Part shown: in pieces, positions 4,224 through 57,700 of the stretch
Layout: the number at the start of each line of letters is the position of its first letter
Numbering within the stretch: position 1 is the stretch's first letter
IMG/VR virus record: IMGVR_UViG_3300046366_000135
Location: 1 to 63,860 of that record
Source: a virus
Lineage: Duplodnaviria > Caudoviricetes
Strand: one strand, 5' to 3'
Length of the DNA: 63,860 bases
Made by a program: the position numbers and the translations under genes
Notes under the pieces: generated by a model
Database searches by the model: none
What the model was told of the DNA's origin: nothing
The model's input: only the letters and a program-made list of their open reading frames with translations

Positions 4224-4778
4224 TCATATTTTCACATCTGGGTTTTTAACAGGTTGAGTCAAACCATCTGCATAGTAAAGTTTATACTGTTCAATCAGCC
4301 TGATCAGCTTTTGAGGGTAATTTTTGTCCTCAGCATAACCCCTAATTTTGAGCTGATAGGCGGCACTTTTGTAGTTCAATCCGTACTTAGTCCAAATAGA
4401 ACCATAACGTTCATTTTTAAGCAACTTGCTATGATGACGTATTGACCACCAAGCAGATTTGTAAGTACAAAAATACCCCTCAGAATAAAGCTTCTTACCC
4501 GTAGCATAAGTCCTAGTCAATTCATTCCCCCAAGCCTTAATGCCAAAATGGTTATTGGAAGTCTGGGCCATGTAAGAAGTACCAGCGTCACTCTCTAAAA
4601 TGGCCTGAGCCATAGAAATTGCTGCTGGGACTCCGTGAATTACCCGCTCAGCTACAAAAGTCTCCCAATACTTTTTAATAAACTTAGCATGTTTTTCAGG
4701 AACACCCCTCAAATCAGGAGCTAAAGCTTTACCATGCAAATTTAAACTCAAAAACAAAAGTACAATAATTAATCTCAT
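4224..4778 (-). CDS. GH73 glucosaminidase/FlgJ-like peptidoglycan hydrolase with signal peptide
   Basis: AQAILES, NNHFGIK and GYAEDKNY..KL motifs; N-terminal MRLIIVLLFLSLNLHG. Confidence 0.9.
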   Translation of the reverse strand: MRLIIVLLFLSLNLHGKALAPDLRGVPEKHAKFIKKYWETFVAERVIHGVPAAISMAQAILESDAGTSYMAQTSNNHFGIKAWGNELTRTYATGKKLYSEGYFCTYKSAWWSIRHHSKLLKNERYGSIWTKYGLNYKSAAYQLKIRGYAEDKNYPQKLIRLIEQYKLYYADGLTQPVKNPDVKI

Positions 4779-13398: not shown

Positions 13399-13429
13399 CA
13401 AAAGTATAAAATAAATCCCAGAAAGTCAA
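13399..13429 (-). promoter_or_regulatory. Bacteroidota housekeeping-sigma promoter
   Basis: TTG-N20-TACTTTTG on the minus strand, 33 bp upstream of the SSB start. Confidence 0.8.
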
Positions 13430-33053: not shown

Positions 33054-33058
33054 AGTTT

Positions 33059-33288: not shown

Positions 33289-34215
33289 TTACAAGATAAT
33301 TTCATTATGGACTTTGAATGAGTCTTGGAAAACCTCAACACGTGCAAAGCCATGATTCCACTTACTTTTTCCAGCGTACTTAGGGTCTAGCTTACATAGA
33401 CAACCAGTAGCCCAGGCCCCAACATACTCATCGTTCAATTTACGGTCAATGTCTGTTTGAGTCCGGTGGAAGTGGCCAAGTACCACATTTGTCCCAGCTT
33501 TCAAACGAGTCGATCTTGCATGGTAAATTCCTCCTCCAAACATGGATTTATATTCGTGTCCATGAACAATGTGTAGATGACTTACTTTAGCAATTTGGTT
33601 TTCCTCAACATGAATAATTCCCAAATTCTCTAAATCAAGTTTTTCACTCAAACTCAAAGTAATGTCAGACATCTCAGGCGCATTGTTAACCATGTAATCA
33701 ACAAAACGTTTTTCATGGTTCCCCTCTTTGTAGTAAATTGAGGCTTGAGGGAAAAGCTCTCTGACTTTTACAAGAAACTCTTTGGTGATTTTTATTTCAT
33801 CAGACATGGATGGAACATGCTTCCCGTTTTGAAATCTGGAAATCCTCTCGCAGTCCATAATATCACCATTAAGATAAACAGCATTTACTCGGTGATTGAT
33901 TCCATACCTTAGAGAATACAGTAATGCGTCCTTATGATGACGTGGGAAGTGAATGTCTGATAGGACTAAGATATTGTCCCCTTGAATTTCAATAGGAGCA
34001 ATAGCTTCATCAAACCCGTCATCAAAGTCACTAAAAACTGTATCAACCACAAGATCATCATTCAAGTCAAGTTCGTTATTTTCTAACGCTCTGACATAGA
34101 TAGTTGCTGCTCTGGCTTCTTGTTCGGAAATACCTAATTGTTCTGCAATTTTAGTCCTCCCAAAGCCTTGCTTAGCTAATTCAATAGCATTTTGAAATTT
34201 CTCATTCATACTCAA
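33289..34215 (-). CDS. metallophosphoesterase with N-terminal HTH
   Basis: GRTKIAEQLGISE; SDIH, NGDIMD, GNHE, HGH, GHFH. Confidence 0.88.
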   Translation of the reverse strand: MSMNEKFQNAIELAKQGFGRTKIAEQLGISEQEARAATIYVRALENNELDLNDDLVVDTVFSDFDDGFDEAIAPIEIQGDNILVLSDIHFPRHHKDALLYSLRYGINHRVNAVYLNGDIMDCERISRFQNGKHVPSMSDEIKITKEFLVKVRELFPQASIYYKEGNHEKRFVDYMVNNAPEMSDITLSLSEKLDLENLGIIHVEENQIAKVSHLHIVHGHEYKSMFGGGIYHARSTRLKAGTNVVLGHFHRTQTDIDRKLNDEYVGAWATGCLCKLDPKYAGKSKWNHGFARVEVFQDSFKVHNEIIL

Positions 34216-35530
34216 CGGTATAAGTTTCTGTTTTATATCCGCAAGTTAGTGATTTCAGTTTGAAAGTATCAGAAATTTTAGAAATATTTTCAGCAATTTC
34301 TTGGAAATTGTCGTAGAAATACTTACTTTTAAAAGTTGGTGTATATTGTTTTATTTTGAACAAAACATCTTCATAGTGTTCTTTAGCTGAGTCGCCTTGG
34401 CCTGAATAGATACCTGTAATGTCTCCAACAATAGTCATTGATAGTTCATGTGTTCCCAACTTAATTGAGTGCATAAACAAAGCTCCTTTGTAGACTTCAA
34501 CAGTCTTTTCCAAAAGCTCAGTCAATAAAGGCAGCCCATAACCGTATTGCTCATCCCGACCTTTTACTCCAAGATCAACCGACTTCTCAGAAAGCAGTTT
34601 TATGATCTCTTTATTTGTCAATTTAGGACGACATGAAGCTATGATAGCACAGACTGCCCCAGCGTGTGGAGTACTCATACTAGTTCCAGAAATAGTTTCA
34701 AATCCACCATCTAACCAAGTGGAGTAAATAGATTCTCCCGGAGTTGAGATATAAACCTGAGCACCAAAAGTAGAGTAACTTGATCTAGTTAAGGTTTTTC
34801 CTTTTTGCGTCAAAGAGCCAATACCCAAAGTCCATTGAGAACTCCCCGGATAATTAACCCCAGCTTTTCCAGTATTACCAGCAGCAGCAACAGTTAAAAC
34901 TCCCATATCATAGGCTTGTTTCAACAATTTATCTGTACTGTTCCACGTGGAACTTCCACCACCTAAAGAGAAATTGTAAATAACGAAATAGCCTTTAGAG
35001 ATAAATTCCTGGGCTTTTTCATTTGCCCATTTGATGCCTTGGTCAATAACAAATATTGTTCCATTGCCTTTTTCAAGAACTTTTACAGGTACAAGTTCAA
35101 TCAAATCTCGTTCTATCAAAGGCTTACAAAGACCAATATCCATTCCTTCTTTTACCGCTACATAAGAACCAGCTACATGTGTACCGTGACCTCCGTCATC
35201 CTTTTTATTGACAAATGATGAGAATGAAAGTCCTTTATTTGCTGCTTGATTAGCCGGGTGATTGTTATTTCCAGAAGTATCAAATACAAACACAACAACC
35301 TTACGACTTGCTGAAGTTTTGATGTAGTCATAGTTATCCTCAACACCTAAAGCTTTATAAGCCCAGTTCTCAGCAGACAAAGCCCCAATTTGTGGAACCG
35401 TTTCGATAGGCTCCAAAACTACGTCAAAGTTCTTTTGATCTTTGTCTGCCTTTAGTTTTGCAGCAATGATGTGAGCAAGTTGGCCAGAGCCATGAGGGGC
35501 ATTGAGGCCATAACGAATAGCATTAAGCAT
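34202..35530 (-). CDS. subtilisin-family (S8) serine protease
   Basis: Triad FDT, GHGTHVAG, GTSMSTPH; oxyanion AAAGN. Confidence 0.93.
   Translation of the reverse strand: MLNAIRYGLNAPHGSGQLAHIIAAKLKADKDQKNFDVVLEPIETVPQIGALSAENWAYKALGVEDNYDYIKTSASRKVVVFVFDTSGNNNHPANQAANKGLSFSSFVNKKDDGGHGTHVAGSYVAVKEGMDIGLCKPLIERDLIELVPVKVLEKGNGTIFVIDQGIKWANEKAQEFISKGYFVIYNFSLGGGSSTWNSTDKLLKQAYDMGVLTVAAAGNTGKAGVNYPGSSQWTLGIGSLTQKGKTLTRSSYSTFGAQVYISTPGESIYSTWLDGGFETISGTSMSTPHAGAVCAIIASCRPKLTNKEIIKLLSEKSVDLGVKGRDEQYGYGLPLLTELLEKTVEVYKGALFMHSIKLGTHELSMTIVGDITGIYSGQGDSAKEHYEDVLFKIKQYTPTFKSKYFYDNFQEIAENISKISDTFKLKSLTCGYKTETYTVEYE
34939..34954. promoter_or_regulatory. parS-like site (1 mismatch)
   Basis: TGTTCCACGTGGAACT. 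Confidence 0.75.
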
Positions 35531-35627
35531 ATATGCGTATTTTAGTGTTTGGGTTTGGTTTTTTAGATTCTAAAGCTAAGGCCCTTCTCTTTTTGGCTTC
35601 AGCTACTTTTTCTTTGATAGACTTCAT
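35523..35627 (-). CDS. 34-aa basic peptide (not in ORF track)
   Basis: MKSIKEKVAEAKKRRALALESKKPNPNTKIRIYA; exactly fills the gap and overlaps both neighbours. Confidence 0.45.
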   Translation of the reverse strand: MKSIKEKVAEAKKRRALALESKKPNPNTKIRIYA

Positions 35628-36277
35628 CACTTTATTTTATATCCGTAAATAGTTGTTTTCTGAGAAGTCACTCCACCAAAGTTACCATCATCATCTTTTC
35701 CTCCAAACCACAACCAGATTTCTTTGGAAGGAGCCCATTTGTAATCAACCTCATCGGCTTCAATGTACCAAAGCAATTGTCCAGTAGTGTTGTAAGCTGA
35801 AACACAGGGAAGTAACTTGTTTTTATTGAATTTCTTGAACTCAAGATACAACCCATAAACTTCAGTTACGTTAAAAACTTTCAAAGACTGGTAAGCAAAA
35901 GCAAAATCCTTGTTTTGATAAAGGCAAAGCTCCATCATTAAAGAATCAGCCGTGGGCCTAGCAGCGAACATTACTCCGTTTTTGTTGTGCTGTTCAAGTA
36001 AAGGACTCACACCAAAAATCTTGTAATTCCAGTCATACACATCACTGTCTACTTCACCATTTGGAAGCTTCCAACTGAACCAAGTATTTGGATCAAAACG
36101 AACACACGATGTAGGTGTACTTCTACCACCAAGCAGCCAGTATAGTCTAGGCTTAATTGTGGAAGGACGGAAATCATGCTCACCCTTTTCCGCTGTGTAT
36201 TCTCTTAAGTAATTTTCATACTTTTGAGAAAAGCCAAGGATGGGTAATAAAAGCAACAGCAGGATTCGAGTTATCAT
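35627..36277 (-). CDS. exported hypothetical protein
   Basis: Signal peptide MITRILLLLLLPILGFS|Q; Trp-rich, beta-type sequence. Confidence 0.7.
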   Translation of the reverse strand: MITRILLLLLLPILGFSQKYENYLREYTAEKGEHDFRPSTIKPRLYWLLGGRSTPTSCVRFDPNTWFSWKLPNGEVDSDVYDWNYKIFGVSPLLEQHNKNGVMFAARPTADSLMMELCLYQNKDFAFAYQSLKVFNVTEVYGLYLEFKKFNKNKLLPCVSAYNTTGQLLWYIEADEVDYKWAPSKEIWLWFGGKDDDGNFGGVTSQKTTIYGYKIK

Positions 36278-36714
36278 TCTTTTTTATTTAGTCGTTGCAG
36301 AATGGTTTCATAAGTTTCTTCGGGTACTATAGGCACAACTGGTTTAGGATTTGGGTCTTCATCCTGTTCAACAATATGCCGATAGCATTTACTACAAATA
36401 CTCTTACGAGTTTGTATAGTCCATGAGCATCGAATACCCGGAGCGTGCATTACAGCACAGCTAATTGAGAAACCAGCGCCGAAACCATTGGAATAAGAGC
36501 CAGGTTCACTGCTATACCATTTGTGAGCACAACTATCAACACCGACTTCCAGAGTATCAATAGGATACCAGATAGTTTCTGGTACATAAAGATTGCGTAG
36601 AAATGGCATTTCAGCAGTTGTAAGTAGGCTATTGCTACCTGAGATGATGTAGCCGGTTTGGCCACTTAGAGTAAGCGACAACAAACCAGCTACAAGTATT
36701 AGAATGTTTTTCAT
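36274..36714 (-). CDS. exported Cys-containing hypothetical protein
   Basis: Signal peptide MKNILILVAGLLSLTLSG|Q; CAHKW and CSKC. Confidence 0.65.
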   Translation of the reverse strand: MKNILILVAGLLSLTLSGQTGYIISGSNSLLTTAEMPFLRNLYVPETIWYPIDTLEVGVDSCAHKWYSSEPGSYSNGFGAGFSISCAVMHAPGIRCSWTIQTRKSICSKCYRHIVEQDEDPNPKPVVPIVPEETYETILQRLNKKE

Positions 36715-36717
36715 TGG

Positions 36718-39700
36718 TTATTTGATGATCCAGTCGAAAGTTACGCCTGTAGAAGTTATTGCAGCTTTGGTACTAGTATCGTAAGCTCTTACGGTGAAAG
36801 TAGTAGCGGTCTTCGCGGTAATAGTGTAGCCAACTCCTAAAGTAGTTCCAGTCCCCTGAATATCCACCACATAGTTAGTGTGGTTTTTATTGTGGGTAAT
36901 TACAACATCCCCAGAGCCATCGGTAGAAGCACTTGAGCTACCTTTATCATTAGTAGCGTTATCCACTACTACCCAACGATATGTAGTAGGCCCAGTTCCT
37001 ACAATATTGCACACAAACTCGGTAGGTTTAGTGAGATGCATAGTAGCTGTAGAAGCTCCATCCAGCTCGATTGAACCTGTGGCATTGATATTGTAGCTAG
37101 TATTTAAATCGCGTGGGGAAAGCAAAATAGATTTACCAAACGCTCCAGCATTTGCAGTAGGTAAAGGAATATCTGTATCCGCAGAAGCACCACTAGTAAG
37201 CTCTACAACAGCCGAGTATCTTTGATAGTTACTTGTACCAAAAGCAGACAAAGAAGGAGTTCCTGTGGTGAACTGACCGTCTACAAGCGTAGTAGATCGA
37301 GATACCCAGCCTGTATTCCCCGTACCCGTTTCCTTAAAGTAAATAGTAGTTCCGGCCCCACCTAATGTATTTATGTAGATAGAGCCGGGTGGGGCTGTCA
37401 CTACTGTTTCTGGTGATCCTGACCCACGATAAGTTAAAGTTACATCTAAGACGACCCCTGATGTAGGCGTGTACAGTAGGCGGGTTCCATCTGTGCTAGG
37501 TTCTAGTAATCCTTCCTCTGTGATTGTTTTTTGAGTATGTCCAGATAGAGTAAATTTTAATGGGCCTGTGTTGGCTGCTGCTGAACCTGCTGGCAAATGT
37601 AGTCTTGCAGTGGGGTTTTGGCTATTCACCCCGCCTATTCCTACTCTACCTGTATTTGTTACTAAAAAATGGTTCGTTCCACTTGATGGGTCGGAAGCGT
37701 TTGAATTGAGTTTTACACGCCCATCACTTGCGTCAAGTCCAAAAGACCAATATTCGACTGAAGTGTTGCCGAAAAACAACGACGCATCTGCATTACTACC
37801 CGTTGCGAGTACTGTCATTGTGGCTTTTGCATTTGTCGCTGAACTTGTGTTGTATAGTAAGCCCTGTAGGCCTGTTGAACTAGATACAGAAATATCTAAA
37901 GGAGTGGACGAACCCGTTACTGTTCCAGTTATATTCAACGCGTTTGATCCTGTAAAGTTAGATAGGATGTTTAGACCTGTTCCGGTTATTCCTGTTTCAA
38001 CAAACACAGGTTTCTGAAAAACAAATTTACTCCCAGTCGTTGCGTTAAATGAATTTGTTCCATCTGCTCCAATAGTCCAATTTATTTCTTTTGTTGCTTC
38101 TGAGTTTAAAAACCTCCATACGGCTGAACTGGTAGCAGTTGCGGTACTTTTAAATCCTCCTGCTCTTGAGAAAGATAAAAGGTCCGTATCGTCTGAAGCC
38201 AACAAATTATAACTATCTGCGCGATATGTCCAAACCCCTGATTTTATATCTTTTCGACCTTCCCATGATGCAGGTCTAAATACAGTGCCATCAGTAAGCC
38301 TAACTTCAGGTGCGTGGAACTCTTGCCAGTAATACCCAGCACCCGGAAAGGGCATGTAGTGTCTTTCGATACCTAGTCTGATATTACTATTGTCTCCCGT
38401 AGAGCTATTATCCCAATTAAAACCTAGTGAAATTACTTCATTTGGCCGTGACTGCCTATCAGGTAGCCTTGTTTTATCATACCACAACCCCGCGTTTCCT
38501 GTTCCTGCATCAAGCGAACTGAAAATTATCTTCTTGTTGTCAGTGGAATCGAGTTTCACGTTCAACGCCCGAACCGAAACGGTTGAACCATCGTAGGTCG
38601 CGTTGCCATTGCCAGCAAATGCGCCGGAACTGTTGTATTGCAATTGAGTATTAGAACCTCCAGGTGTTCCGCTCCCCCCACTCGCATCCCGTCCAGCCCA
38701 TTTACTCCCCGTCCAAGTAAGCACCTGATTAGTTGAAGCCCCCGCGCCCACAAGGTCGTTTGGCGAAAGGTTTGCTGCTTTGGTGCTGTCTACGGCGTTT
38801 GATGCCAGTTTTGCCGTAGAGATTGCACCGTTGTCTACCGTCCATGTTGAACCAGAGCCAGAAACAGTAATATCCCCTTTGTCGCCGTCTGAGATTCCAC
38901 CACCGCCTGATGGGGTTGAAATCCAGACAGGTACACCTGATTGCCACTCAATCATTTTGTTTCCTGATCCTGGAGAGGAGTTGGGAAAGACGTATTTGTT
39001 GTTGTAAAAGCTTATTCGGTTGCTCGTTGTGTCTGTGTCTAGGTTGTCGACTCGCAACCAGTCGAATTTAGTGCTAGAGTTGTAGAAGTTGGTTTGAAGC
39101 AACCAGGATTTAGTAGGTGCAATTATTGTACTTTGTCCTGATGTTTGCGATTTGTAGGCAAACCCAGAAATATGTGCTCTCCCGCCACCAGATATAGAAT
39201 CTGACTTAAATTGAAGGTAATTATACATCCTGCTACTTGAATCTATTTGTACTCTGTGTCGTAAAATAAAGTCACCAGAAGCCCTTCTTAAATCTAGGTC
39301 ATAAAAAACGCCCGTATTTACAGTAGCGTTTCTTTCCGCTAGAGCATTAAAATTAATTGAATAAGTTCTATTTGAAGGTCCATAAATATAATGCCCCCAG
39401 GTCAAGTTACTATAATTATTTTTCGTGTCTGTTTTAGATGTTTGAAATGTAAAAAACCCGTCATTATTGTACTGCCCATCTGCCGAGAAATACAAACCCA
39501 GTTTTTTATTATTTTGGGTTCCATTTATATTTACATAATCACCATTTGCCCCACCTAAATTTATTGTTCGTGAACTTGAAATTGTCCCGTCTTGGTTATA
39601 AATACTATTATCTGTAGCATACCCCGTCGTTCCTGTCGACGAATTGTATTTCAAGACCTGTTGATCTGTTGCACCGGACACACCTAATTTAACGGGTGAA

Positions 39701-40674
39701 ATTGCACGGTTTTTGACCTTGTTGCTGTCTATGGTTTGGCTTGCGAGATCGGCATTAACTAACGTCCCGTCGAGCACATTAGCAGAAATCACAACCCCGG
39801 TGCCTAATGCCGGGTTTGGATAGGTTCCGGTTAGGTCTCCCCCGGCTGCTCCCGTTGGTGCGCCACTGCCAGAAATAACAGTATTGTCCCAAAGCAAATT
39901 AACTGCCCATTTATACGCACCTGCCTGCCGCTGATCACGTAACGCACGAACCTGAGCCATTTCTCCTGGCTTAAGTAAATATGAAGTCTTGGTATTTGAA
40001 AGATGAGCATCCGACAGAATCCGAGTCTCAACCAATCCTGAGTCATTTTTCACATTATACACCACACCATAATGATCGGAGTTGGGAGCTGCAAGGAATG
40101 CCACAACAGAAGTATCTGTATTTCCCTTACAAGAAATATAGATGTTGTTATAAAATCGAGAAGGAGTTGCGATAACAAGGTTGGGAATATAGTTGGTTGA
40201 ATGAGCTACTGTGATAGACGTATCCTTCTTAACTATAATCTCGTTGAGCAACGAAACCAAGTATTCGTTATATACTTGCTGATCGGCATTACTAAGCCCG
40301 GACACAAAAGGAAAATAGCCTTTAGACGTAGGATGAAAAATAGCTTTCATCCCTGAGCCTACAGAGCTGATTTGTGTGATACCTACTTTAGAGACTTTCA
40401 CCGATAATGTTGGATGCATTGCACTCACAATTTCAGTTATAGGCAAAAAGAAGGTATAAGCACCATCAGAGAAGAATACAACATCTCCTACCTGAACACC
40501 AGAGGCATCATAGACACCAGAAGCGTCGTTAAATACTCCCGTCAAAGTCCATGTGGTAAGATCACCCATAGATTGAGAAGCGTTAAAAGTACCACTTAAA
40601 TTAGGCTGACGCTCTGCCTGTCCATAGAGTACTACGGACAGGCAGGTTAATATGATTAAAAGAACGTTCTTCAT
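36718..40674 (-). CDS. long tail fibre / receptor-binding protein with N-terminal signal peptide
   Basis: Fibre modules GAAGGDLTGTYPNP, DGDKGDITVSG, GGSNTQLQYN, GRVGIG..PTARLH, GSGSPE.VVTAPPGSIY...GNTGW; leader MKNVLLIILTCLSVVLYG|Q. Confidence 0.85.
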   Translation of the reverse strand: MKNVLLIILTCLSVVLYGQAERQPNLSGTFNASQSMGDLTTWTLTGVFNDASGVYDASGVQVGDVVFFSDGAYTFFLPITEIVSAMHPTLSVKVSKVGITQISSVGSGMKAIFHPTSKGYFPFVSGLSNADQQVYNEYLVSLLNEIIVKKDTSITVAHSTNYIPNLVIATPSRFYNNIYISCKGNTDTSVVAFLAAPNSDHYGVVYNVKNDSGLVETRILSDAHLSNTKTSYLLKPGEMAQVRALRDQRQAGAYKWAVNLLWDNTVISGSGAPTGAAGGDLTGTYPNPALGTGVVISANVLDGTLVNADLASQTIDSNKVKNRAISPVKLGVSGATDQQVLKYNSSTGTTGYATDNSIYNQDGTISSSRTINLGGANGDYVNINGTQNNKKLGLYFSADGQYNNDGFFTFQTSKTDTKNNYSNLTWGHYIYGPSNRTYSINFNALAERNATVNTGVFYDLDLRRASGDFILRHRVQIDSSSRMYNYLQFKSDSISGGGRAHISGFAYKSQTSGQSTIIAPTKSWLLQTNFYNSSTKFDWLRVDNLDTDTTSNRISFYNNKYVFPNSSPGSGNKMIEWQSGVPVWISTPSGGGGISDGDKGDITVSGSGSTWTVDNGAISTAKLASNAVDSTKAANLSPNDLVGAGASTNQVLTWTGSKWAGRDASGGSGTPGGSNTQLQYNSSGAFAGNGNATYDGSTVSVRALNVKLDSTDNKKIIFSSLDAGTGNAGLWYDKTRLPDRQSRPNEVISLGFNWDNSSTGDNSNIRLGIERHYMPFPGAGYYWQEFHAPEVRLTDGTVFRPASWEGRKDIKSGVWTYRADSYNLLASDDTDLLSFSRAGGFKSTATATSSAVWRFLNSEATKEINWTIGADGTNSFNATTGSKFVFQKPVFVETGITGTGLNILSNFTGSNALNITGTVTGSSTPLDISVSSSTGLQGLLYNTSSATNAKATMTVLATGSNADASLFFGNTSVEYWSFGLDASDGRVKLNSNASDPSSGTNHFLVTNTGRVGIGGVNSQNPTARLHLPAGSAAANTGPLKFTLSGHTQKTITEEGLLEPSTDGTRLLYTPTSGVVLDVTLTYRGSGSPETVVTAPPGSIYINTLGGAGTTIYFKETGTGNTGWVSRSTTLVDGQFTTGTPSLSAFGTSNYQRYSAVVELTSGASADTDIPLPTANAGAFGKSILLSPRDLNTSYNINATGSIELDGASTATMHLTKPTEFVCNIVGTGPTTYRWVVVDNATNDKGSSSASTDGSGDVVITHNKNHTNYVVDIQGTGTTLGVGYTITAKTATTFTVRAYDTSTKAAITSTGVTFDWIIK

Positions 40675-40677
40675 AGA

Positions 40678-42303
40678 TTAGATATTTGTAAATTTAGCAT
40701 GGAACCCTTGGCTGCCTACAGATAAGCCACCAATACGCAAAGTAATATTGCCAGAACCTACCCCTACAACAGACAGAGCAGGGTTATTGTCAAGATCAAG
40801 GGTGGCTGCGTTAGTAACTGATAGAGCACCAGAAGCAGGAATAGCTGTTTTTTGCATAACTGGTACATTGAGATCAGCAATACCTGTGTTACCCCCGGTT
40901 CCTTGAAATTCAACCGTAACCCAGTTTGTAACCCCACCAGCATCAGCACTAGCCTGTACATCAGCACTAACTAAACGCCAATCAGCAGACATGACCTGTA
41001 CTCCACTAGGAATTACAATAGTCAATTTGTTAGATGCAAAACTTGCGGAAACCCCCGCACCATAAGATACAATAGTCAAAGTAGAACCAGAGTTTGCACC
41101 AGTGATACCCACACTGTATTTAGTTAATGCTTGTGGGGCATTAGTATAAGTTTGCCCTGTACTTTGTTTATGATATACAGTAGGATCGTTATTTAATTTA
41201 TACAGAGCATTATTCGTAACCCCTGCCCAAGCTAAAGCATGTGTAGAGAAGCGTTGAATATCTGTATAAATAAATTCTTTTCTGGTCTGGGTGTAAATAG
41301 TCAAATCAGAACCTTCCGAACCATCAATCACATCGATTGTGTATACAGGCTGCCCAGCACTTGCTTGAGTTTGTGCTCTTGCCCATGACCCACTTGATTC
41401 TAGGATTGTTTGTACAGTAGTTCCATTCCCAGCTACACTAATATCAGAGATATTTGTAGTACTACGTGATCCAATATAAGTACCATAACTTGAGGCACTA
41501 CCCCCATTAAAATGAACCCTACCACCTAAAGAACCTGATGCCCAAGTACCTTGATTAATCATAAAAGGATACGTAGCTGTAGTTATCGTAGTACTTTCCC
41601 CTAGTGTTCCACCTAATTTAAAATTACTTGTAGCTAGTGTAAGACCATTACTAGCAGTATAACTACCACCACCACCAGAGTTAAGGTTATTCAAAACAGT
41701 TTGTAGTGAAGTAGCATCAGAACCACCCACAGTAGGATCATCTACAATACCTGTTGCAAAAGTACGCCAGTTTGTATTTGTGCCATTGTAGTAAGGAATA
41801 GAATGAGCACTAGCCCCTGTGACATCCCAATCGAGTGTAAGAGTAGAACCTACAAGAGTAGATTTCAATACATTACCTGTCAAGATAGAAAGTTCTCCAC
41901 TAATACTATCCTCTCCTACATCAGCCACAAGATTAAAGGAACCTACCCCACCACCTCCACCAGAAGCAGGACAGTTACAGTCAGTAAGTTCAGCAACAAC
42001 TGCTGGAACATTACCATAGATTGTTTCAGTAGCCTTAAAAGAAATAGACTTTCCAGTATAGTCAGTTAAGGTAAAAACTTGACCTGACACAAACCAAGAA
42101 AATGGCTTTTTAATAAATACCCGGTTAGATGGCCCACGATCTACTACGATACCAGAAGTGTATTCTGTACCTGTTAAACCTGTAGCACAGGGAGCACAAT
42201 AAGCTTTAGGAATTGCTTCGCAATTATAGCAGGTAAGTTTAGTTGTTTGAGAAAACCCTAAGACTGAAATAAGTAAGCTAAGGGTTAAAATAATATGTTT
42301 CAT
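40678..42303 (-). CDS. fibre-like structural protein with N-terminal signal peptide
   Basis: Gly/Ser/Thr-rich, YTASNGLT..FKLGGTL fibre motif; leader MKHIILTLSLLISVLGFS|Q. Confidence 0.7.
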   Translation of the reverse strand: MKHIILTLSLLISVLGFSQTTKLTCYNCEAIPKAYCAPCATGLTGTEYTSGIVVDRGPSNRVFIKKPFSWFVSGQVFTLTDYTGKSISFKATETIYGNVPAVVAELTDCNCPASGGGGGVGSFNLVADVGEDSISGELSILTGNVLKSTLVGSTLTLDWDVTGASAHSIPYYNGTNTNWRTFATGIVDDPTVGGSDATSLQTVLNNLNSGGGGSYTASNGLTLATSNFKLGGTLGESTTITTATYPFMINQGTWASGSLGGRVHFNGGSASSYGTYIGSRSTTNISDISVAGNGTTVQTILESSGSWARAQTQASAGQPVYTIDVIDGSEGSDLTIYTQTRKEFIYTDIQRFSTHALAWAGVTNNALYKLNNDPTVYHKQSTGQTYTNAPQALTKYSVGITGANSGSTLTIVSYGAGVSASFASNKLTIVIPSGVQVMSADWRLVSADVQASADAGGVTNWVTVEFQGTGGNTGIADLNVPVMQKTAIPASGALSVTNAATLDLDNNPALSVVGVGSGNITLRIGGLSVGSQGFHAKFTNI

Positions 42304-42321
42304 TTTTTGAATTAGTTTTGG

Positions 42322-42348
42322 TTAAGGGTGAGTATAACCCACCCTTAA
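42322..42348. promoter_or_regulatory. intergenic hairpin
   Basis: TTAAGGGTG / CACCCTTAA; no clear U-tract. Confidence 0.45.
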
Positions 42349-42365
42349 ATGATGCTCGTTAATGT

Positions 42366-43184
42366 TTAATCGCAAAGGAAACGTTCGGTCATCTCGCAGA
42401 ATGCAAATTGACCGTCAGAACCAACCAATACAGGTTCATCCTCCAAAGTGTAAATTTTAATGGTGTAACCACCCTCAGCATTGTTCACGCTTACTTCTAC
42501 ATCAATATAACTGTAACCATTAGCGGATACCAAAGTATCTAATGTATCAATAACATCAGCTTTCAGAGTGGCAGCAGTTACAAGGTCAGTTGATGTACCA
42601 GTGTAATTATAAGGGTTGTTAGCAAGGGCAGCAGGAGTACCACCATTGAAAACAAAGTTTCCAATTTGATCAACCCCAACATACTTCCACACCCGAACTG
42701 GTACGATCTCACAACAAGGAGTCGGAGTAGACATTGTACTTGCATTGTCGAAAGTAATTGCAGACAACACAGCACGACCCCGATGAGTGATGGTCAACGC
42801 GCCTCCGGCATAAGAAACTCGCAGGTAAATGTCATACTCATACAGTTCCAATACTTTAGTCAACCACTCCTCTACTTTAGCCGCATCAGTTACAGCAATC
42901 TGACCATAGGCAGGAGCAATAACTTTCCCATTTGCTTGGGTAATAGGCATGGTAGTCAAGGCAGTAATGCTAGAGCCGTCAGGGTGAGTGATAGTTACAC
43001 TTGCCAATTTCCGGGTGTTAGCCACAGTATTGGTGAAAATACGCTGACAATTGTCAGGAGCATTTTCAGTACAGCAACCATATACCCCACCGAGTTTGAA
43101 CAGATTCTCAGGGTCAGCATGATAGTTTCCACGCAATTTCCCAAATTCGATCAGCTTCATTCGCTTCAAAATTAAATTGCCCAT
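42366..43184 (-). CDS. probable virion structural protein
   Basis: Position in the morphogenesis operon; two CC motifs. Confidence 0.55.
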   Translation of the reverse strand: MGNLILKRMKLIEFGKLRGNYHADPENLFKLGGVYGCCTENAPDNCQRIFTNTVANTRKLASVTITHPDGSSITALTTMPITQANGKVIAPAYGQIAVTDAAKVEEWLTKVLELYEYDIYLRVSYAGGALTITHRGRAVLSAITFDNASTMSTPTPCCEIVPVRVWKYVGVDQIGNFVFNGGTPAALANNPYNYTGTSTDLVTAATLKADVIDTLDTLVSANGYSYIDVEVSVNNAEGGYTIKIYTLEDEPVLVGSDGQFAFCEMTERFLCD

Positions 43185-46354: not shown

Positions 46355-47559
46355 TATTCAGCATAGATTTGTGAGCCTACAACATAGTTCACATCCGCAA
46401 TTGCGTTTGCAAACATAGCCTCAGACAAAATGAAGTATTTACCACGTTCAACATTGCTAGTACCACGTTCAATACGGATACCAATGTTGTTGGTCTCAAT
46501 GTCAGGGATTTCACCAAAACTACCACCAAGACCAATGTTACGACCCATTGTGAGGTAGCTGAAATGGTATCCACCTTCCAAGTACTGATCATACTCAGCA
46601 GTAGCGTCAATTGGAATCAATGGAACATTGTCTACAAAATAAACATAAATTGTAGCACCTCCATTTTGATATTCCCGGCGAGTCAGACGAGGTTGGATCA
46701 GAACATTATTGATGTTGTATACAGCCTGTTCGTTGTACTGAGCAGCAGCGCGGTTGTTGATAGAATCGCTAACCAACCATACAGCAGAAGGTACAATACC
46801 ATTAATTGCCCGGCCATTTACACCACCTACGTTCAATTGTTTAACCATTGGGCCTTTAGCCTTAGCTACCAATTCATCCTTCAACGCGATCACATCACCA
46901 ATGAACTGCTTACCGTCGAACATACTTGCAGTGAAGTAGTTAGGCAGGTTCAGGTGTGTGAATGCAGAACCTTGATCAGCAGTCTCTTTCAACAAAGGCA
47001 GCCATCCCCGACAAGCGGAGTTAGTCTTCTTCATCAAAGAACGAAGATCGTTAGATACATCATCCCGGAAAGTTTGATCGGTAAAGTTGAACAGACCCCC
47101 AGCAGTCAAGGTGAGATAAGCACCATAAGTGTAGTTCTCAATCAAGATTTCTGTGAATTGATTGATCAAAGCTTCAGCAGTAGCGTCCAATGTTTTGTAG
47201 CCATTCGCAGACCAAGTAAACAGGTGCTTGAAGCATTCATCCATCAATTCATCCCAGCAATGCTGCTCATTGATCTTGGCATCACATGGAGTGATTTCCT
47301 GACGATCCATACGCAAGCTACCAGTAGGTTCCCAAGAACAAGACTGGTTTTTCTGCCAAACAAAGGGGGTAGCCTTAGCGCTGTGAATAATATATTTCAA
47401 CTTCTGGTTCATAGGCATCCATTGGAAAATGCCGAATATACGCTGATAAAAAGAGAAGTTGTCATAAATATGCTCACGCGCAAAGGAGTTGGTCTCAGCA
47501 ACAGGAAAGACCAATGTCTGTTCCCGACGATTAAAAGTGGGTTTTACTCTCAGGGCCAT
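46354..47559 (-). CDS. major capsid protein
   Basis: 401 aa directly after prohead protease; SCSWEPTG..KINEQHCWDEL pattern; strongly biased codon usage. Confidence 0.75.
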   Translation of the reverse strand: MALRVKPTFNRREQTLVFPVAETNSFAREHIYDNFSFYQRIFGIFQWMPMNQKLKYIIHSAKATPFVWQKNQSCSWEPTGSLRMDRQEITPCDAKINEQHCWDELMDECFKHLFTWSANGYKTLDATAEALINQFTEILIENYTYGAYLTLTAGGLFNFTDQTFRDDVSNDLRSLMKKTNSACRGWLPLLKETADQGSAFTHLNLPNYFTASMFDGKQFIGDVIALKDELVAKAKGPMVKQLNVGGVNGRAINGIVPSAVWLVSDSINNRAAAQYNEQAVYNINNVLIQPRLTRREYQNGGATIYVYFVDNVPLIPIDATAEYDQYLEGGYHFSYLTMGRNIGLGGSFGEIPDIETNNIGIRIERGTSNVERGKYFILSEAMFANAIADVNYVVGSQIYAE

Positions 47560-48905
47560 TATTGTACAGTTACAAAGCCATCATAGAGGGCTTCAAATTT
47601 TTGAATCGAATTAAGTTTATCGTTGGCCGAGTTATCACCAGAACCTTCTGCCTCATAACCAAGAACTCGCTCACTGAGGGTTTTATTCTCAGCACTAAGT
47701 TCAGTCATTTTAGTTTCAAGTTCAGTGATCTTAGAAGCCATAGAAGCACTAGCTACATTTGCGGTAGATAGTCCATTCAGAGCCTCAGTCAATCGACCTT
47801 CCAAATTTGCTACCTTAGCCGTAAGGTCAGCAGTTACAGCAGAGATTTGAGTGGCTACGGGTTCCATAGCCTCAAGCTGGTTGGCTGCCTGCTCCATACC
47901 AGCTTCAGTTGAAGTTACGCTGATACCCAAAACTCGGAGGAATTGGTTGGCCAGCTTGTCAAATACAGTCATATTTTCAGTTGTTTTAAGCACAGTCATT
48001 TCCTCTTCAGAATCTACTTGATCTTCTAAGGATTTTTCTTGAGATGTGGAAAGGTTTAATTCATCACCAATTTCTTGAACCAGCTCACTCAAAGATCGAA
48101 TACCATCTACAAGACCCGTTTCAATAGCCTTAGATGCTTTAACCATATCCCCTTTCAGCATTTCTTTGCTTACTTGAGGTCTATGCAAAAGCACTTTAGA
48201 ATGAAATAGATCAGCGGTTTCGTTCAACTCCTGAGTGATAGGTTTATAATTACCCTTCAAAATTTCCCTCCATTCGAGGTTTTTATTGGGTGATTTTTCA
48301 GAATAAATGTCAATCACATTCTCCCGATACCAAGTTACAAACTCTTTATCCAAGGAGAGCATTACACCAATAGACCCTGCCTCAGCAAAGTCTGATTTAA
48401 GGTAGATTTTTTTAGCTGGGGCAGCAGTCATATAAGCAGCAGAGCCAATAAAATTACCAAGTACATAGACAGGTTTTTTGAGACTTTTCATAGTCTCATA
48501 CATCATAGCTCCGGCTGAAACAGCCCCACCACCAGAATCAATATCCACAATATGAGCTACAACATCAGATTTGGCATCAGCAGTAGTAAGGAAATTTGAC
48601 CAATCATCAGCACCATAAGAGCACATTCCCCCATAAGGCTGCATCACTCCAATTATTTGGACATAGTTGATGAATTGGTTTGATTTACCCTCTCTTCGTT
48701 CGTAATTTTGTTCCCAACGATCTGCTAGAACAATCTCAGAAGCAGCTCTTTTCGTAGCTTCATAACCTAATTCTTTGATCGACACACCTTTCTCAAGAAG
48801 CTCAATTTCACCAAGATATTTGGATAGCTGTCGCATACCCCAATTGATGTCAATTAGCCATTCAGAACTTGTAATTAGATTGTCAATAATTTTATTACTT
48901 GGCAT
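47559..48905 (-). CDS. S49 (SppA/ClpP-like) prohead protease fused to coiled-coil scaffold
   Basis: DIDSGGG, GSAAY, GSIGV, GLVDG; C-terminal coiled coil. Confidence 0.9.
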   Translation of the reverse strand: MPSNKIIDNLITSSEWLIDINWGMRQLSKYLGEIELLEKGVSIKELGYEATKRAASEIVLADRWEQNYERREGKSNQFINYVQIIGVMQPYGGMCSYGADDWSNFLTTADAKSDVVAHIVDIDSGGGAVSAGAMMYETMKSLKKPVYVLGNFIGSAAYMTAAPAKKIYLKSDFAEAGSIGVMLSLDKEFVTWYRENVIDIYSEKSPNKNLEWREILKGNYKPITQELNETADLFHSKVLLHRPQVSKEMLKGDMVKASKAIETGLVDGIRSLSELVQEIGDELNLSTSQEKSLEDQVDSEEEMTVLKTTENMTVFDKLANQFLRVLGISVTSTEAGMEQAANQLEAMEPVATQISAVTADLTAKVANLEGRLTEALNGLSTANVASASMASKITELETKMTELSAENKTLSERVLGYEAEGSGDNSANDKLNSIQKFEALYDGFVTVQ

Positions 48906-53588: not shown

Positions 53589-54786
53589 ATTAGAGTTACT
53601 TTTGGTAAAATTAACAAATTTATTAAAAACGAAACAAAAAGTTTTGCTATTTTAAATTTATTTGTTAATTTTACAAGATGAAATTGATTTTGAAAATAAA
53701 ACTTAATCCAACCACTGATCAAAGTAAGTTGCTCTATAGCACAATTATAGAGACGAACTTGGCATGCAATGCTATTTCTCAAGACGGATGGGATAATGAA
53801 ATATTCAAACAATTCAAGTTGCATCATCTTTGTTATTATAAGATCAAAAAATCTTTTAATCTCACAAGCCAGATAGTTGTGAGGGCAATTAGTAAAGTTT
53901 CTGACGCTTATAAAGTAAATAAAACTAAACTTGCAAAATTTAAGGAGTTGGGAAGCATTTGCTATGATAGTAGAGTGCTTAAATACAAAAGTGATGCTAT
54001 TGTAGATATTTGGACTGTAGGTGGCAGACAAAAAATAAGGTTTAGTTACCATAATAAAGGGTACTTCCCTTACATAAAGGGGGAGGCTGATTTGGTCTAT
54101 AAAAAAGGAAAGTTTTATCTTTTTCAAACTATTGAGTTTCCCGAACCACCCATTGAATCTGTACAAGAATTTATAGGGGTTGATCTTGGACTTACAGACA
54201 TTGCAGTAACTTCTGATGGAATTAAACATTCCGCAGATCGGATCAACAACTACAGAGAAAAAAGGCAAAATATTCGTAGTTCTATTCAACGCAAAGGCAC
54301 AAAAGGAGCTAAAAAACTCTTGAAACGGCTTTCTGGCAGAGAAAGCACTACTGCAACAATAATTAACCATACTATTTCTAAATCCATTGTGGAATCTGCT
54401 AAAAATCAAAACAAGGGAATCTCTATTGAGGACTTGACCAACATTAGAACTACTTCCAAGCGTAGGAATAGAAAATTTAGAACTAAGCTTGGGCGTTGGT
54501 CTTTCTATCAGTTGCGTTCCTTCTTGGAGTACAAATCCAGACTTAGTGGAGTTAGGTTTGTGGTTGTAAATCCTGCTTATACTTCTCAAACTTGTTCTTC
54601 TTGCTATTATATTGGGACAAGAACTAATAAATCTTTTAAGTGCAAAAATTGTGGAAACAATATGGATGCGGATGCTAACGCATCGCTCAATATTGCTACA
54701 CTTGGGGCTGTTATAAACCAGCCTGAAAAATCGGAAATTTATAGCTGTGCTGTTCATTTCTAGGTTAAAGTCTTTAGACAGTTTAT
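53589..54786 (+). mobile_element. IS200/IS605-family tnpB-only element (IS1341-like)
   Basis: tnpB opposite to the operon; left-end 15-bp IR at 53605-53619 / 53660-53674; right end GTC-TTTA-GAC-AGTTTAT; excision restores an ATGA overlap. Confidence 0.85.
53678..54763 (+). CDS. tnpB: TnpB RNA-guided endonuclease
   Basis: RuvC I GVDLG, II IEDL, III DADANAS; PAYTSQTCSSC..CKNC zinc finger. Confidence 0.96.
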   Translation: MKLILKIKLNPTTDQSKLLYSTIIETNLACNAISQDGWDNEIFKQFKLHHLCYYKIKKSFNLTSQIVVRAISKVSDAYKVNKTKLAKFKELGSICYDSRVLKYKSDAIVDIWTVGGRQKIRFSYHNKGYFPYIKGEADLVYKKGKFYLFQTIEFPEPPIESVQEFIGVDLGLTDIAVTSDGIKHSADRINNYREKRQNIRSSIQRKGTKGAKKLLKRLSGRESTTATIINHTISKSIVESAKNQNKGISIEDLTNIRTTSKRRNRKFRTKLGRWSFYQLRSFLEYKSRLSGVRFVVVNPAYTSQTCSSCYYIGTRTNKSFKCKNCGNNMDADANASLNIATLGAVINQPEKSEIYSCAVHF

Positions 54787-57700
54787 CCGGTTATAGTTTG
54801 TAAGTTTTTACGTCTCGCAGCCTCTAAAGCAGCCTCTCTATATCCTTCAACGATGGCATCAGATACAGAAGAACTTACTTCATCAGCTACAATCGTAGCA
54901 AATCTATCAATTTGGCTGTCCTCTAAGGTCAGTTTATATACTGTAGTTCTAGCAGAACCAATACTATCATTCTGAGATGCTGGAAGAACAAAACCTCCTA
55001 CAGCATAGGCAGCGTAATTAGGTGATCCTTTTTTAGTTCTCAAAGACTCTGCCTGAGCAGCCAAAGAAGCCCCAGCAGGAGTATCCAAAACATGTTTAGG
55101 GATTACATACTCATCTTCATGCACAACTCCGGCTACTCTAAAACCAGTATGATCACGTTGACCTGTAGCAGTAGTATAACCACCGACAGCATATGATCTA
55201 GCCCGGATAGCTGAGGTTTGCAAAGCATACTGACCTGTTAAGAAAGCAAGTTGGATGCCTTTGTAGATGGCATCGAATGGTTGCTTAATCACAGAAGCAG
55301 CAGTCAGGATGTTAATGATACCTTGAGCGTAGCTAATGGCAGCCTGGGCTAATTCAATTTTCTTGTTCTTCTCAAATTGCTCTCTTTTCAGAGCATCAAT
55401 CTTACTAGCTTTCTCTTTTTCCAACCGCTCTACAACTTCTTTGTTGCCTCTAGCGGCTTCAATCTCTTTGTCGTAGTATTTCTCAAGGCTCTTAATCCTT
55501 TCATCGAACTGAACGTTGATTAACTCATTGAGAGAATCACCTAGCCCACTAATTTGAGATAGGGTCAGATCGACAAACGTCAGAATATTCTGAGTCTTAG
55601 CATCCAAAGCAAAAACGTCATTATCAGCCTCAAGTTGGCCTAACTGTTGTAGTTTATCATAGTATTGCCTCTGTAAAATTAACCGTTGTTCTAAGGACAG
55701 CTTGGTATTAGATAGTTGAGTTTCAAGGATTTTTATCTCACCCTCAAGCTCTAACCTTTCTACATTTTTTTGATACTCTTCGTAAGATTTACTTTTAGTC
55801 TGAAGTACCTTTCTATCAGTATCAATTTGAATTTTAGCAATTGCCTCAGCTTCGGTAATTGCTGAGCTAATTCCCCCCAACTTAGCCCTTTCTGACTGAA
55901 GTTGTTTGTCAATATCCAAAAACTCCTTACTACCCTCTTTATAGAGTTGCTTTCTAGCTTCAAGGGTTTGGATTTCAGCAGTAATAGCAATAGCTTTCTT
56001 AGTCTCAGCTAAGACGCGCTCATTAGTTATGGTATCCTCAGCATTTTGATCAGCTAAATCTTTAGCAGTTTTGATACTGTCAATCAAAGGCTGTACGTCA
56101 GTTTCTAATAACGCAGTAAACGAACTATTAGAAGCAGCTCTTTGGAGACGCTTGATAGCATCCTCAGCTAACTTCAAATCCTTCTCGGCCTTATCTAAAT
56201 TACCAACAATTTTATTGATTGCTTCAGGCTTCGCTGACTCAAGTTCTTTTTTAAGACTGGATACTTTTTGTTGATAAAACTCAACACTACCAGCAGCCCC
56301 TCGTACAGCCAAGTCCAAAGAATCTAATGTATCTTGCCATTCTTTTTCAGCAGCATTTATTTTGAAAGTAATATCATAGTACTCAGCAAGAAGGTCTGCA
56401 TAAGGTTTACCTTTTACAATTGATTCTTGGATAGCATTTTTTAGTTCAGTCTGTCTTTTAGTTAGTTTCTCTAACTCACTAGCAGCATCCTTATCTCCTT
56501 TAGTTCCATACTGGAACGAAGCTCTCCTACGAAGGTTATCCAAGTCAAATTTGTCAAAAGACAAGACATCTTTGGGAGCTAGTTTTTTCTCCAAAGATTT
56601 TCTAGCCTCTTCAGCAGATTTTTCCAGAGCTTTATTGTCAAGCTTTAGGTTTTTGTTTATAGTTTTACCGACTCCGGCACTAAAAATACCTAGACCATCA
56701 AGCTGTTTTTTGTTTTTTTCAAGATACTGATCATTCTGAATATTACGTTTGGCAATTTCAGTAGCATTATCCTTTGTGATGTTTTGCTGAGTCTTTTTGT
56801 TAAATTGTTCCATTAATTTCTCCCCAAGTACAAAGTTAGCAACATAAGCTACTGGGTTAAATATAGCTAGTAATTTTTTACCTAGATCAGCAGCAAACTC
56901 AAAGACCTTACGAAGTAATTTTGCAAATTCAGAAGTTGAAGTATAGGCATAGTAAATTGCAGATACTAAAGCCCCAACTGCTACAATAGCTATTCCAATA
57001 GGGTTAGCAGTAATGGCTGCATTCCAAGCCCATTGAACAGCAGTTATAAGTCTAGTAATTCCAGTCAATTTAGAAATATTAGCAATCCATTTACCAATAG
57101 CTACACCTGCATTATAAGCGGTTGCTTTAGAATTAAAAACGATAGCCACAGTAAAAGCAGCAATAATCGGGATTAATGCACCCACGATGGCTTTTACTTC
57201 ATTAAACTTAGCAACAGCCTCTTCCTCGCCTTGAACTAAACGAGCAAAAAACTGAACAATGTCAGCTATTCCTTTAACAAAAGCAGCTATTGGCCCGCTC
57301 TGGGTACTAAATATTGCAATTCCCAGAGTTTCAGTAGCCCCCGTCAATTCGTCAAAGGCACCTTTAAGGTCTTTGCGCATTGCTTCAGCAGTAGCTTTGG
57401 AACTGCCCTCAGCATTATCTAACTCAGCGATTAAGTCAACGAGTTTATCTTCTTGTTTAGCCAGAGCGATAGCAACAACAGAAGCATCTTTTCCAAACAA
57501 GGCGTTAGCAACTGCTAGTTTATTCTCAGCATTATTGATAAGATCAAAGGCTTCTTGCAAACTTCTGCCAGAGTTAGCAGTTTCAATAAAGATGTTGCGT
57601 AATGAAGTTCCAGCAGTAGACGCATCAATACTTTCATCTTTAAGAATAGACAACAAACCCGCAGTTGTTTTTAAATCAACACCCACAGCACTGGCTGCTG

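Follow-up and report, generated by a model that had tools for sequence, protein, structure and literature searches.

We analyzed a linear virus record of 63,860 bases (IMG/VR IMGVR_UViG_3300046366_000135), referred to here in its entirety as the window, and found four adjacent late genes whose products, of 541, 1318, 146, and 216 amino acids (aa), each begin with a predicted Sec-type leader followed directly by Gln. The best explanation for these genes is that they constitute an exported tail-fiber module of a tailed phage with a probable Bacteroidota host, placed at the end of the late structural string. The observation is real and general, and the interpretation is partly supported. All four N-termini contain a Lys or Arg early, a hydrophobic stretch of 13 to 16 residues without charge, Gly or Ser at position -1, and Gln at +1 (Table 1). 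An earlier reading of the same DNA, made without database searches (the sequence-only reading), had ascribed to them a basic region, a hydrophobic core, a small residue at -1, and Gln at +1; its coordinates and sequences were both confirmed. None of the four proteins has a Cys at +1 (lipobox) or a twin arginine.

Leaders were called with a heuristic rule of our own, in a strict and a looser form, together with inspection by eye, and not with a trained predictor. The strict rule for a leader followed by Gln selected exactly these 4 of the 78 open reading frames (ORFs) of the window. All four are neighbors, an arrangement with a chance of 5e-5 if they were placed at random. The looser rule selected 5 of the 78 ORFs, the fifth being a lipobox protein that the rule had mis-cut, and, as a control, 1 of 147 non-gene ORFs in six frames. 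The frequency of Gln proteome-wide is 3.8%. Start codons are generally uncertain in Bacteroidota, which lack Shine-Dalgarno sites, and this uncertainty is the only point in favor of an artefact in which translation starts downstream of the leaders or the resemblance arose by chance. We give such an artefact hardly any weight, because the chance controls, the gene spacing, and the comparison of homologues all oppose it. The genes are separated by 3 nt, 3 nt, and then a 4-nt ATGA overlap, a spacing that pins the start codons to the leaders. There is no further in-frame Met until far downstream, and in dozens of divergent homologues the leaders have kept their leader character. The same tight packing makes it almost certain that the four genes are co-translated from one late transcript.

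Bochtler et al. 2018 (PMC5837995) and Szczesniak et al. 2023 (PMC10653852) report that Gln directly after a leader is specific to signal peptidase I (SPI) substrates of Bacteroidota (the Q-rule), and the rule predicts that pyroglutamate (pyroGlu) forms at the +1 Gln in the periplasm. The proposal that the four leaders follow this rule held up when families were aligned. The +1 Gln was invariant in the alignments of the two large proteins and nearly so in that of the 146-aa protein (Table 1), and the leader residues drifted across homologues while the Gln positions held. As judged from these predicted N-termini, leader plus Gln is retained in divergent homologues of three of the four families, and the 216-aa family is mixed. 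We consider it very probable that the leaders are real, selected Sec/SPI signals of the Q-rule type.

The counts behind this statement came from searches with the individual proteins. A search of 5.8 billion proteins with the 1318-aa protein returned 90 matches, 57 of which had leader plus Gln under the strict rule and about 70 when those recognized by eye were included. Among the 33 strict misses, 13 had by eye a leader and Gln with a charge near the cut or a long n-region. All 22 homologues that were fetched begin with leader plus Gln, with leader sequences that differ from each other. For the 541-aa protein, the strict rule flagged 29 of 40 matches and inspection raised this to 32 by adding P0103, P0104, and P0101. 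The leader of P0101 is internal because its upstream gene, of the type that precedes the cluster in the window, reads through into the 541-like gene. Four of the remaining matches are clearly leaderless (P0118, P0119, P0121, and P0134), and four are fragments or uncertain. In the 146-aa family, 11 of 16 members were flagged by the strict rule and 16 of 16 by eye. The 18 members of the 216-aa family that were fetched, from 22 matches, comprised 5 with leader plus Gln, 3 with a leader lacking the Gln, 1 with a lipobox, and 9 that were leaderless. The leaderless members begin at the conserved domain, about 5 residues past the cut predicted here. We also asked whether the leader of the jelly-roll family covaries with the leaders of neighboring fibers; this failed, as locus L007 has a leaderless member beside leader-bearing fibers.

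An arrangement in which the proteins stay in the cytoplasm and are added to the tail there, with the N-terminus serving as a transient membrane tether, being removed as an assembly pro-peptide by the neighboring S8 protease, or simply being retained, would remove the topological problem of building a virion in two places. An S8 subtilase is in fact conserved next to the cluster, and homologous tip and jelly-roll domains work without leaders in other phages. We nonetheless regard this arrangement as improbable. All features of a cleavable SPI substrate are present, and the uncharged run is too short for a stable membrane span. The placement of charges would, by the positive-inside rule, predict an N-in, C-out orientation, so that the bulk of each protein would be translocated. 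Finally, the conserved +1 Gln, which favors export, is hard to explain unless a periplasm-facing cyclase sees the new N-terminus. Two further arguments about export were discarded. The disulfide argument was dropped, since leaderless late proteins of 915, 462, and 390 aa have 17, 11, and 14 Cys, and the enrichment of leader-bearing proteins in the Bacteroidota O-glycosylation sequon D[ST][AILMTV] varied from locus to locus without a consistent trend (z from -2.0 to +3.1).

The sequence-only reading had also assigned phage fiber modules to the two large proteins, and comparison with homologues, together with tblastn, bore out that both are fiber-like and modular. The 1318-aa protein has a leader-proximal domain (D1) that, in all homologues seen, stands behind a leader and nowhere else. 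An AlphaFold2 (AF2) monomer model of residues 19 to 345 had a mean predicted local distance difference test (pLDDT) score of 47.7 and was confident for the D1 barrel alone. A BFVD fold search with the same residues gave TM-scores of at most 0.35 with no standout. Closely related N-termini are joined to swapped C-terminal domains of the GDSL/SGNH esterase, SASA, BNR sialidase, and GH28 types, and Pectate_lyase_3 occurs in two more remote matches. Residues ~986 to 1131 matched 19 cultured-phage records, which are annotated as tail fiber, tailspike, or tail protein where they are named. A PDB sequence search with the 1318-aa protein returned nothing, and neither did a profile scan of genome contigs with alignment A1 reveal relatives.

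Two side observations concern the homologues of the 1318-aa protein. Many of those with different central enzymes (within P0002-P0025) end in a near-identical beta-rich domain of ~85 aa (…LKGSATLDF…FKVTVTK), which matched no model of the type IX secretion system (T9SS). Taken with the conserved N-terminus, this means that in these proteins both ends are conserved and the middle is swapped. The two large proteins of the window do not have this C-terminal domain. Separately, six proteins with leader plus Gln and DUF5907 repeats (P0031, P0050, P0057, P0065, P0067, and P0083) lie on contigs of 229 to 450 kb; two of this set have a Peptidase_S74 chaperone domain, and several start with QVGIGT… after the leader. 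Exported tail-fiber-like proteins may thus also be cellular or prophage genes in Bacteroidota. P0031, P0050, P0057, and P0065 are like the 1318-aa protein in their leader plus Gln and fiber repeats, although they have only short repeats in common with it (3 to 7% of the query).

The 541-aa family (alignment A6) has a conserved N-terminal part of ~215 aa, which includes a Cys cluster just after the predicted cut, a variable center, and a conserved C-terminal tip of ~150 to 170 residues. The tip is not confined to leader-bearing proteins. It also occurs in leaderless fibers (a 722-aa protein of loci L002/L005 and the four leaderless matches listed above) and is fused to D1 in P0114 and P0126-P0128. 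The sole family match among the four leader-bearing proteins was phrog_19265 (unknown function; E 2e-4), on the 541-aa protein; Pfam, PHROG, and NCBIfam gave no other match on any of them. A PDB sequence search with the 541-aa protein returned only rows at E>0.1, and single-protein scans of IMG/VR with the 541-aa and 216-aa proteins found no relatives.

Members of the 146-aa family (A3) share invariant C62, H64, C86, H90, C96, C107, C110, and H113 and a nearly invariant block, RCSWTIQTRKSIC. From these residues, the 146-aa protein looks like a metal-binding or disulfide-rich small protein; no fold, family model, or usable ESM Atlas match was obtained for it. One weak match from an IMG/VR scan with this family (L009) was rejected, as it lies in an unrelated high-GC locus. 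The 216-aa protein was modeled by AF2 as a concanavalin-A-like jelly roll (pLDDT 88.9; predicted template modeling score [pTM] 0.88). The best VIA match of the model was the GH43 C-terminal sandwich 5joz_B (Z 11.7, root-mean-square deviation [rmsd] 3.1, 150 aligned residues), followed by PL7 alginate lyases at Z ~10 to 11; GH16 beta-sandwiches were also matched. Phage receptor-binding domains scored Z 10.0 (8zdo), 9.2 (4qnl), and 8.9 (9n6a), and Foldseek pointed to ulvan lyase (E 2e-4). The ESM Atlas matches were all viral clusters without names, with a PL7 cluster at 0.89 offering a lead. The model fits a glycan-binding or glycan-cutting role, between which it does not decide.

Runs of 2 to 6 genes with predicted leader plus Gln recur in the structural modules of related uncultured phages. 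A 52.6-kb contig (L003) shows synteny with the window beginning at the head protease and has six such genes in a row, followed by an S8 protease homologue and two small membrane proteins. In L002/L005, the genes for the large terminase subunit (TerL), portal, scaffold, and capsid precede the leaderless 722-aa fiber with a 541-type tip, and then five leader-plus-Gln genes follow. L004 has two adjacent leader-plus-Gln genes directly after the capsid gene, with a third, the S8 homologue, two genes on. In L007, three large leader-plus-Gln genes are followed by a leaderless jelly-roll homologue and then by another leader-plus-Gln gene.

The same pattern appears in three cultured Cellulophaga phages from three families, whose records do not mention leaders. 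In phi18:3 (NC_021794.1; L012 32891-38583), the consecutive genes gp085, gp086, and gp087 encode leader-plus-Gln proteins of 547, 785, and ~560 aa. These are 3 of the 12 proteins that carry the note 'experimental MS/MS proteomics analysis' among 123 annotated features. In phi10:1 (NC_021802.1; L014 5760-12791), all five products of gp091-gp095, encoded after the major tail protein and further tail genes, have leader plus Gln. The tandem mass spectrometry (MS/MS) note stands on four of the five (gp091-094), and the product names include 'pectate lyase' and 'tail fiber protein'. In total, the GenBank note is attached to 7 of the 8 leader-plus-Gln tail proteins of these two phages. Ingeline_1 (NC_062749.1; L015 6001-12409) has four leader-plus-Gln genes in a row, gp31-gp34, annotated as virion structural protein, pectate lyase, and tail fiber protein, with gp34 hypothetical. 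The gp085 family extends to 40 Cellulophaga phage records, which match from residue 1 and have swapped C-termini. By analogy, the Cellulophaga records lend indirect support to the view that such leader-plus-Gln proteins end up on virions. Not all Bacteroidota phages show this pattern, as far as predicted leaders tell. None of the 52 ORFs of Phocaeicola phage BV741P1 has leader plus Gln, and Cellulophaga phi38:1 has no such tail or structural protein, with only one 97-aa early ORF flagged. A single ORF was flagged in Flavobacterium phage sniff9-1 and Polaribacter phage Danklef_2 together, a 65-aa ORF of sniff9-1 that matches no annotated gene.

We consider it probable that the leader-bearing proteins are true virion components. 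The records of cultured phages, the position of the genes in structural modules, and the architecture of an anchor with a swappable tip favor this. The explanation that we rank first, with about even confidence, is that the fibers leave the cytoplasm, mature in the periplasm, and attach to virions at lysis, and we hold the broader proposition, that a whole group of tailed Bacteroidota phages including the cultured Cellulophaga phages builds its virions in two compartments, with the same even confidence. Under this two-compartment scheme, the unfolded chains would cross the inner membrane through the host Sec translocon, and SPI would cut before the Gln. A host periplasmic glutaminyl cyclase would then turn the +1 Gln into pyroGlu, as happens to most proteins that Bacteroidota export. 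The two large proteins would fold into fibers in the periplasm, and the 146-aa Cys/His-rich and jelly-roll proteins would serve as fiber accessories or distal glycan-binding subunits. Because capsids and tails would assemble in the cytoplasm, fibers would meet particles only when lysis breaks the inner membrane, which is the most speculative step, and would dock on them by way of the conserved domains next to their leaders. One plausible advantage is that modules of the kind exported by the host, which bind and cut glycans, would fold in their native compartment; a second is that they would gain a protease-resistant pyroGlu end.

Several observations weigh against this scheme. To our knowledge, there is no precedent for the attachment of fibers after lysis. 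The Cellulophaga proteins are, by sequence comparison, analogues and not detectable homologues of the window proteins. BLASTP between the window proteins and the MS-supported Cellulophaga proteins gave nothing at E<0.01. In hhalign comparisons of A2 and A6 with Cellulophaga gp091, gp085, and gp092, only the leaders aligned, plus one stretch at a probability of 2.6%. Moreover, proteins that merely co-purify can be among those called by MS/MS in a purified lysate. The best VIA match in the fold search with D1 (Z 7.0, rmsd 2.7, 81 aligned residues) was tied with unrelated beta-barrels. Half of the fetched 216-aa family is leaderless (9 of 18), and the S8 homologue, leaderless here and in L003, has leader plus Gln in L004 (550 aa; L004 14314-15966), so the compartment is not uniform across the module. 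The ordinary leaderless fiber just upstream of the run in L002/L005 means that the exported proteins there could be extras. In the window itself, leaderless proteins of 390, 462, and 915 aa, encoded after the tape-measure gene and without any family match, could alone supply receptor binding. Lastly, CheckV estimates the contig to be ~85% complete.

These points bear on a second explanation, in which the four proteins are exported without becoming virion parts. They would be free, pyroGlu-capped proteins that bind or cut glycans, and the mass spectrometry calls in the analogues would reflect co-purification or loose binding. Such proteins might target nascent surface polysaccharide while in the periplasm and thereby mask or destroy the receptor. 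Alternatively, once lysis has set them free, they might serve as depolymerases or lectins that clear capsule or matrix or stop progeny from sticking to debris. The leader evidence for this explanation is identical to that for periplasmic maturation of fibers. The C-terminal modules of the homologues are enzymes that act on surface glycans, the 216-aa protein is a jelly roll of the lectin/lyase type, a normal leaderless fiber stands beside the exported set in L002/L005, leader status is mixed in the jelly-roll and S8 families, and leader-bearing DUF5907/Peptidase_S74 proteins lie on large contigs that may well be cellular. In the passages of Matrishin et al. 2023 (PMC10367356) that describe them, five Q-rule genes of unknown function in prophages of P. 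gingivalis are likewise read as host-envelope modifiers. On the other hand, the genes lie inside structural operons (in L004 between capsid and late genes, in phi10:1 after tail genes), unlike the sporadic boundary position typical of accessory genes. Seven of the eight analogous proteins belong to the few that were called as virion proteins by MS/MS. A layout that is conserved next to the leader and swapped in the distal domains is the usual one for a virion anchor, and the four proteins lack any leaderless paralogue in the window that might take the role of the matching virion fiber. We judge this explanation unlikely, though it is the most serious competitor of periplasmic fiber maturation followed by attachment at lysis.

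The sequence-only reading had offered, as an alternative, that the proteins are displayed on the infected cell as adhesins or receptor blockers. Very large surface proteins are among those that Bacteroidota export, and the leaders would suit passage through Sec followed by T9SS or another route. The ~85-aa C-terminal domain shared by many homologues could in principle be a sorting signal. The leaders support the export step of this alternative; for the display step, no T9SS sorting domain was detected. The T9SS C-terminal domain (CTD) models of NCBIfam (E<=0.1) matched none of the four window proteins and none of nine further leader-bearing relatives. No T9SS sorting family was present in the precomputed Pfam lists of the homologues, although a divergent CTD may have escaped all of these models. 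There is also no lipobox, and the window's two large proteins are without the shared end. Surface display therefore seems to us more improbable still than retention in the cytoplasm. The absence of a lipobox in all four proteins also led us to reject a superinfection-exclusion lipoprotein of the Llp/Cor type.

Nearly all genes of the window are on the minus strand. The four-gene cluster comes after the head protease, the putative capsid, and further late genes and before small membrane proteins (32754-33286), and the gene order around it is syntenic with L003. It is flanked directly by leaderless genes on both sides (Table 1). The window also encodes a large terminase fragment, an HNH endonuclease, a replication module, and an endolysin; no tRNA genes were found in it. 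The best cultured matches of TerL were Phocaeicola, Parabacteroides, and Bacteroides phages at 30 to 34% identity and Flavobacterium phages at 23 to 27%, and the names on remote homologues were Flavisolibacter and Chitinophagaceae. The scan of genome contigs with A1 gave no match to a host genome. DNA and tblastn searches found no relatives of the window's structural proteins among cultured phages. A near-identity DNA search with window positions 35000-45000 gave zero matches, and tblastn gave none for the 541-aa, 216-aa, P0171, 915-aa, and 401-aa proteins. PDB sequence searches returned nothing useful for the 915-, 437-, and 272-aa neighbors.

Table 1. Positions of the leader-bearing genes, their parts, and other features in the window
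Feature	Position	Strand	Evidence
541-aa fiber-like protein (MKHIILTLSLLISVLGFS, then Q)	40678..42303	-	ORF and family alignment A6
Predicted leader of 541-aa protein, codons 1-18	42250..42303	-	Q19 invariant 9/9 (A6)
1318-aa modular fiber-like protein (MKNVLLIILTCLSVVLYG, then Q)	36718..40674	-	90 search matches
Predicted leader of 1318-aa protein, codons 1-18	40621..40674	-	Q19 invariant 11/11 (A1), 18/18 (A2)
146-aa Cys/His-rich protein (MKNILILVAGLLSLTLSG, then Q)	36274..36714	-	16-member family A3
Predicted leader of 146-aa protein, codons 1-18	36661..36714	-	Q19 nearly invariant (at least 90% of 16, A3)
216-aa ConA-like beta-jelly-roll protein (MITRILLLLLLPILGFS, then Q)	35627..36277	-	AF2 model and fold search
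Predicted leader of 216-aa protein, codons 1-17	36227..36277	-	Leader heuristic and reading by eye
Conserved leader-proximal domain D1 of 1318-aa protein (residues ~25-115), small beta-barrel	40330..40602	-	AF2 pLDDT ~70-88
Module of 1318-aa protein common to cultured-phage tail fibers/tailspikes (residues ~986-1131)	37282..37719	-	tblastn, 19 phage records
Cys cluster C-x2-C-x7-C-x2-C of 541-aa protein after predicted cut (residues 25-39)	42187..42231	-	C25, C28, C36, C39 invariant 9/9
C-terminal tip domain of 541-aa protein (residues 373-541)	40681..41187	-	74% identical to L003 homologue
Leaderless 272-aa protein, directly upstream of cluster	42366..43184	-	45% identical to L003 267-aa protein; adjacency kept
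S8 subtilase, leaderless, directly downstream of cluster	34202..35530	-	Pfam PF00082, E 4.7e-35
Tape-measure-like protein	58790..54783	-	PHROG tail length tape measure, E 6.5e-55
S49-type head maturation protease	48905..47559	-	
Endolysin with N-terminal leader, no Gln at +1 (MRLIIVLLFLSLNLHG, then K)	4224..4778	-	PHROG endolysin, E 1.5e-26

Other features of the window are recorded here as separate observations. The 62-nt gap upstream of the 541-aa gene contains a 7-bp inverted repeat with a 9-nt loop (AAGGGTG … CACCCTT, 42324-42346), and an A-rich stretch lies between this repeat and the ATG of the first leader-bearing gene. After the putative capsid gene, a 236-aa ORF (45644-46354, minus strand) starts with MKKILSIFNMGLSLFFAA and then Gln. 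This N-terminus is weakly hydrophobic and leader-like, its L003 homologue has a different hydrophobic N-terminus, and it is a candidate leader, membrane segment, or mis-called start. The endolysin has a leader, which indicates that Sec is probably in use late in infection; it may be of the signal-peptide or signal-anchor-release (SAR) type, and its gene is distant from the small membrane proteins mentioned above. In the early/replication region, a 147-aa lipobox ORF (…LLLASC; 28426-28869, minus strand) is followed by a 58-aa membrane ORF (28253-28429, minus strand), and the two may be spanin-like or represent a superinfection-exclusion lipoprotein. The DNA polymerase seems to be divided (13426-17433, minus strand): a 677-aa ORF corresponds to PHROG_17 positions 570-975 and a 352-aa ORF to positions 976-1236, with an unmatched 321-aa ORF (14445-15410) between them. 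At 980-4075 (minus strand), the 407-aa TerL ORF aligns with the 807-position phrog_2 profile only in its C-terminal part (275-589). The stretch immediately upstream of this ORF contains an HNH endonuclease ORF (3242-4075) as well as two ORFs without a match, which suggests that the terminase region is interrupted or rearranged.

The morphogenesis of tailed phages is, in textbook accounts, entirely cytoplasmic. Fibers that mature in the periplasm would, if true, represent a new final assembly step for these phages, and our results suggest an export route for tail fibers that has not been described for them. Host range would then be tied to the Sec, signal peptidase, and glutaminyl cyclase machinery of the host, and the scheme could explain how phages come to reuse glycan-degrading modules that the host itself secretes. 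Receptor-binding proteins of Bacteroidota phages would also have to be predicted, expressed, and engineered differently, as recombinant fibers might need export and a pyroGlu end to fold. The cultured Cellulophaga phages that show the pattern have hosts that can be grown, which makes the question directly testable. Even if the proteins were exported without joining virions, a conserved late module that takes up ~10% of the genome and encodes exported fiber-like proteins would be an undescribed phage strategy.

Our literature searches found no paper on leader-bearing tail fibers or virion proteins in Bacteroidota phages, with a remark in Holmfeldt et al. 2013 being possible. The term 'signal peptide' occurs 0 times in Bartlau et al. 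(PMC8776804), and term searches within PMC6199706, PMC5723332, and PMC12923769 gave nothing relevant. What is already known, from the passages of the sources cited, is the Q-rule itself (PMC5837995; PMC10653852) and the existence of Q-rule genes in P. gingivalis phages (PMC10367356). The Q-rule substrates described so far in the relevant passages of the first two papers (PMC5837995; PMC10653852) are cellular proteins, whereas those described here are late phage proteins with tail-fiber modules. The P. gingivalis genes are like those of the window in being phage encoded and differ in that the passages on them (PMC10367356) do not report them as fiber-like, clustered with tail genes, or virion proteins.

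The closest parallel is provided by Cellulophaga phi10:1, phi18:3, and Ingeline_1, which, like the window, have runs (of 5, 3, and 4) of leader-plus-Gln late genes that are fiber-, tailspike-, or pectate-lyase-like. The Cellulophaga records contain notes of virion MS/MS, while the phage of the window is uncultured. Other phage proteins that depend on Sec are the signal-peptide and SAR endolysins, the o-spanin lipoproteins, and the superinfection-exclusion lipoproteins (T5 Llp and Cor). These are small proteins of lysis or exclusion that act in the envelope, and none is known to be a large modular fiber or a virion component. The endolysin of the window, with its predicted leader, resembles this group. 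In their layout, the two large leader-bearing proteins resemble the modular fibers and tailspikes of other phages (e.g., G7C gp63.1, PDB 4qnl), which have the same anchor with an exchangeable C-terminal enzyme and the same kinds of distal domain; the 1318-aa protein also has a ~120-aa module in common with classical fibers and tailspikes. Classical fibers, however, are leaderless and are assembled in the cytoplasm, whereas the fiber-like proteins of the window carry predicted leaders.

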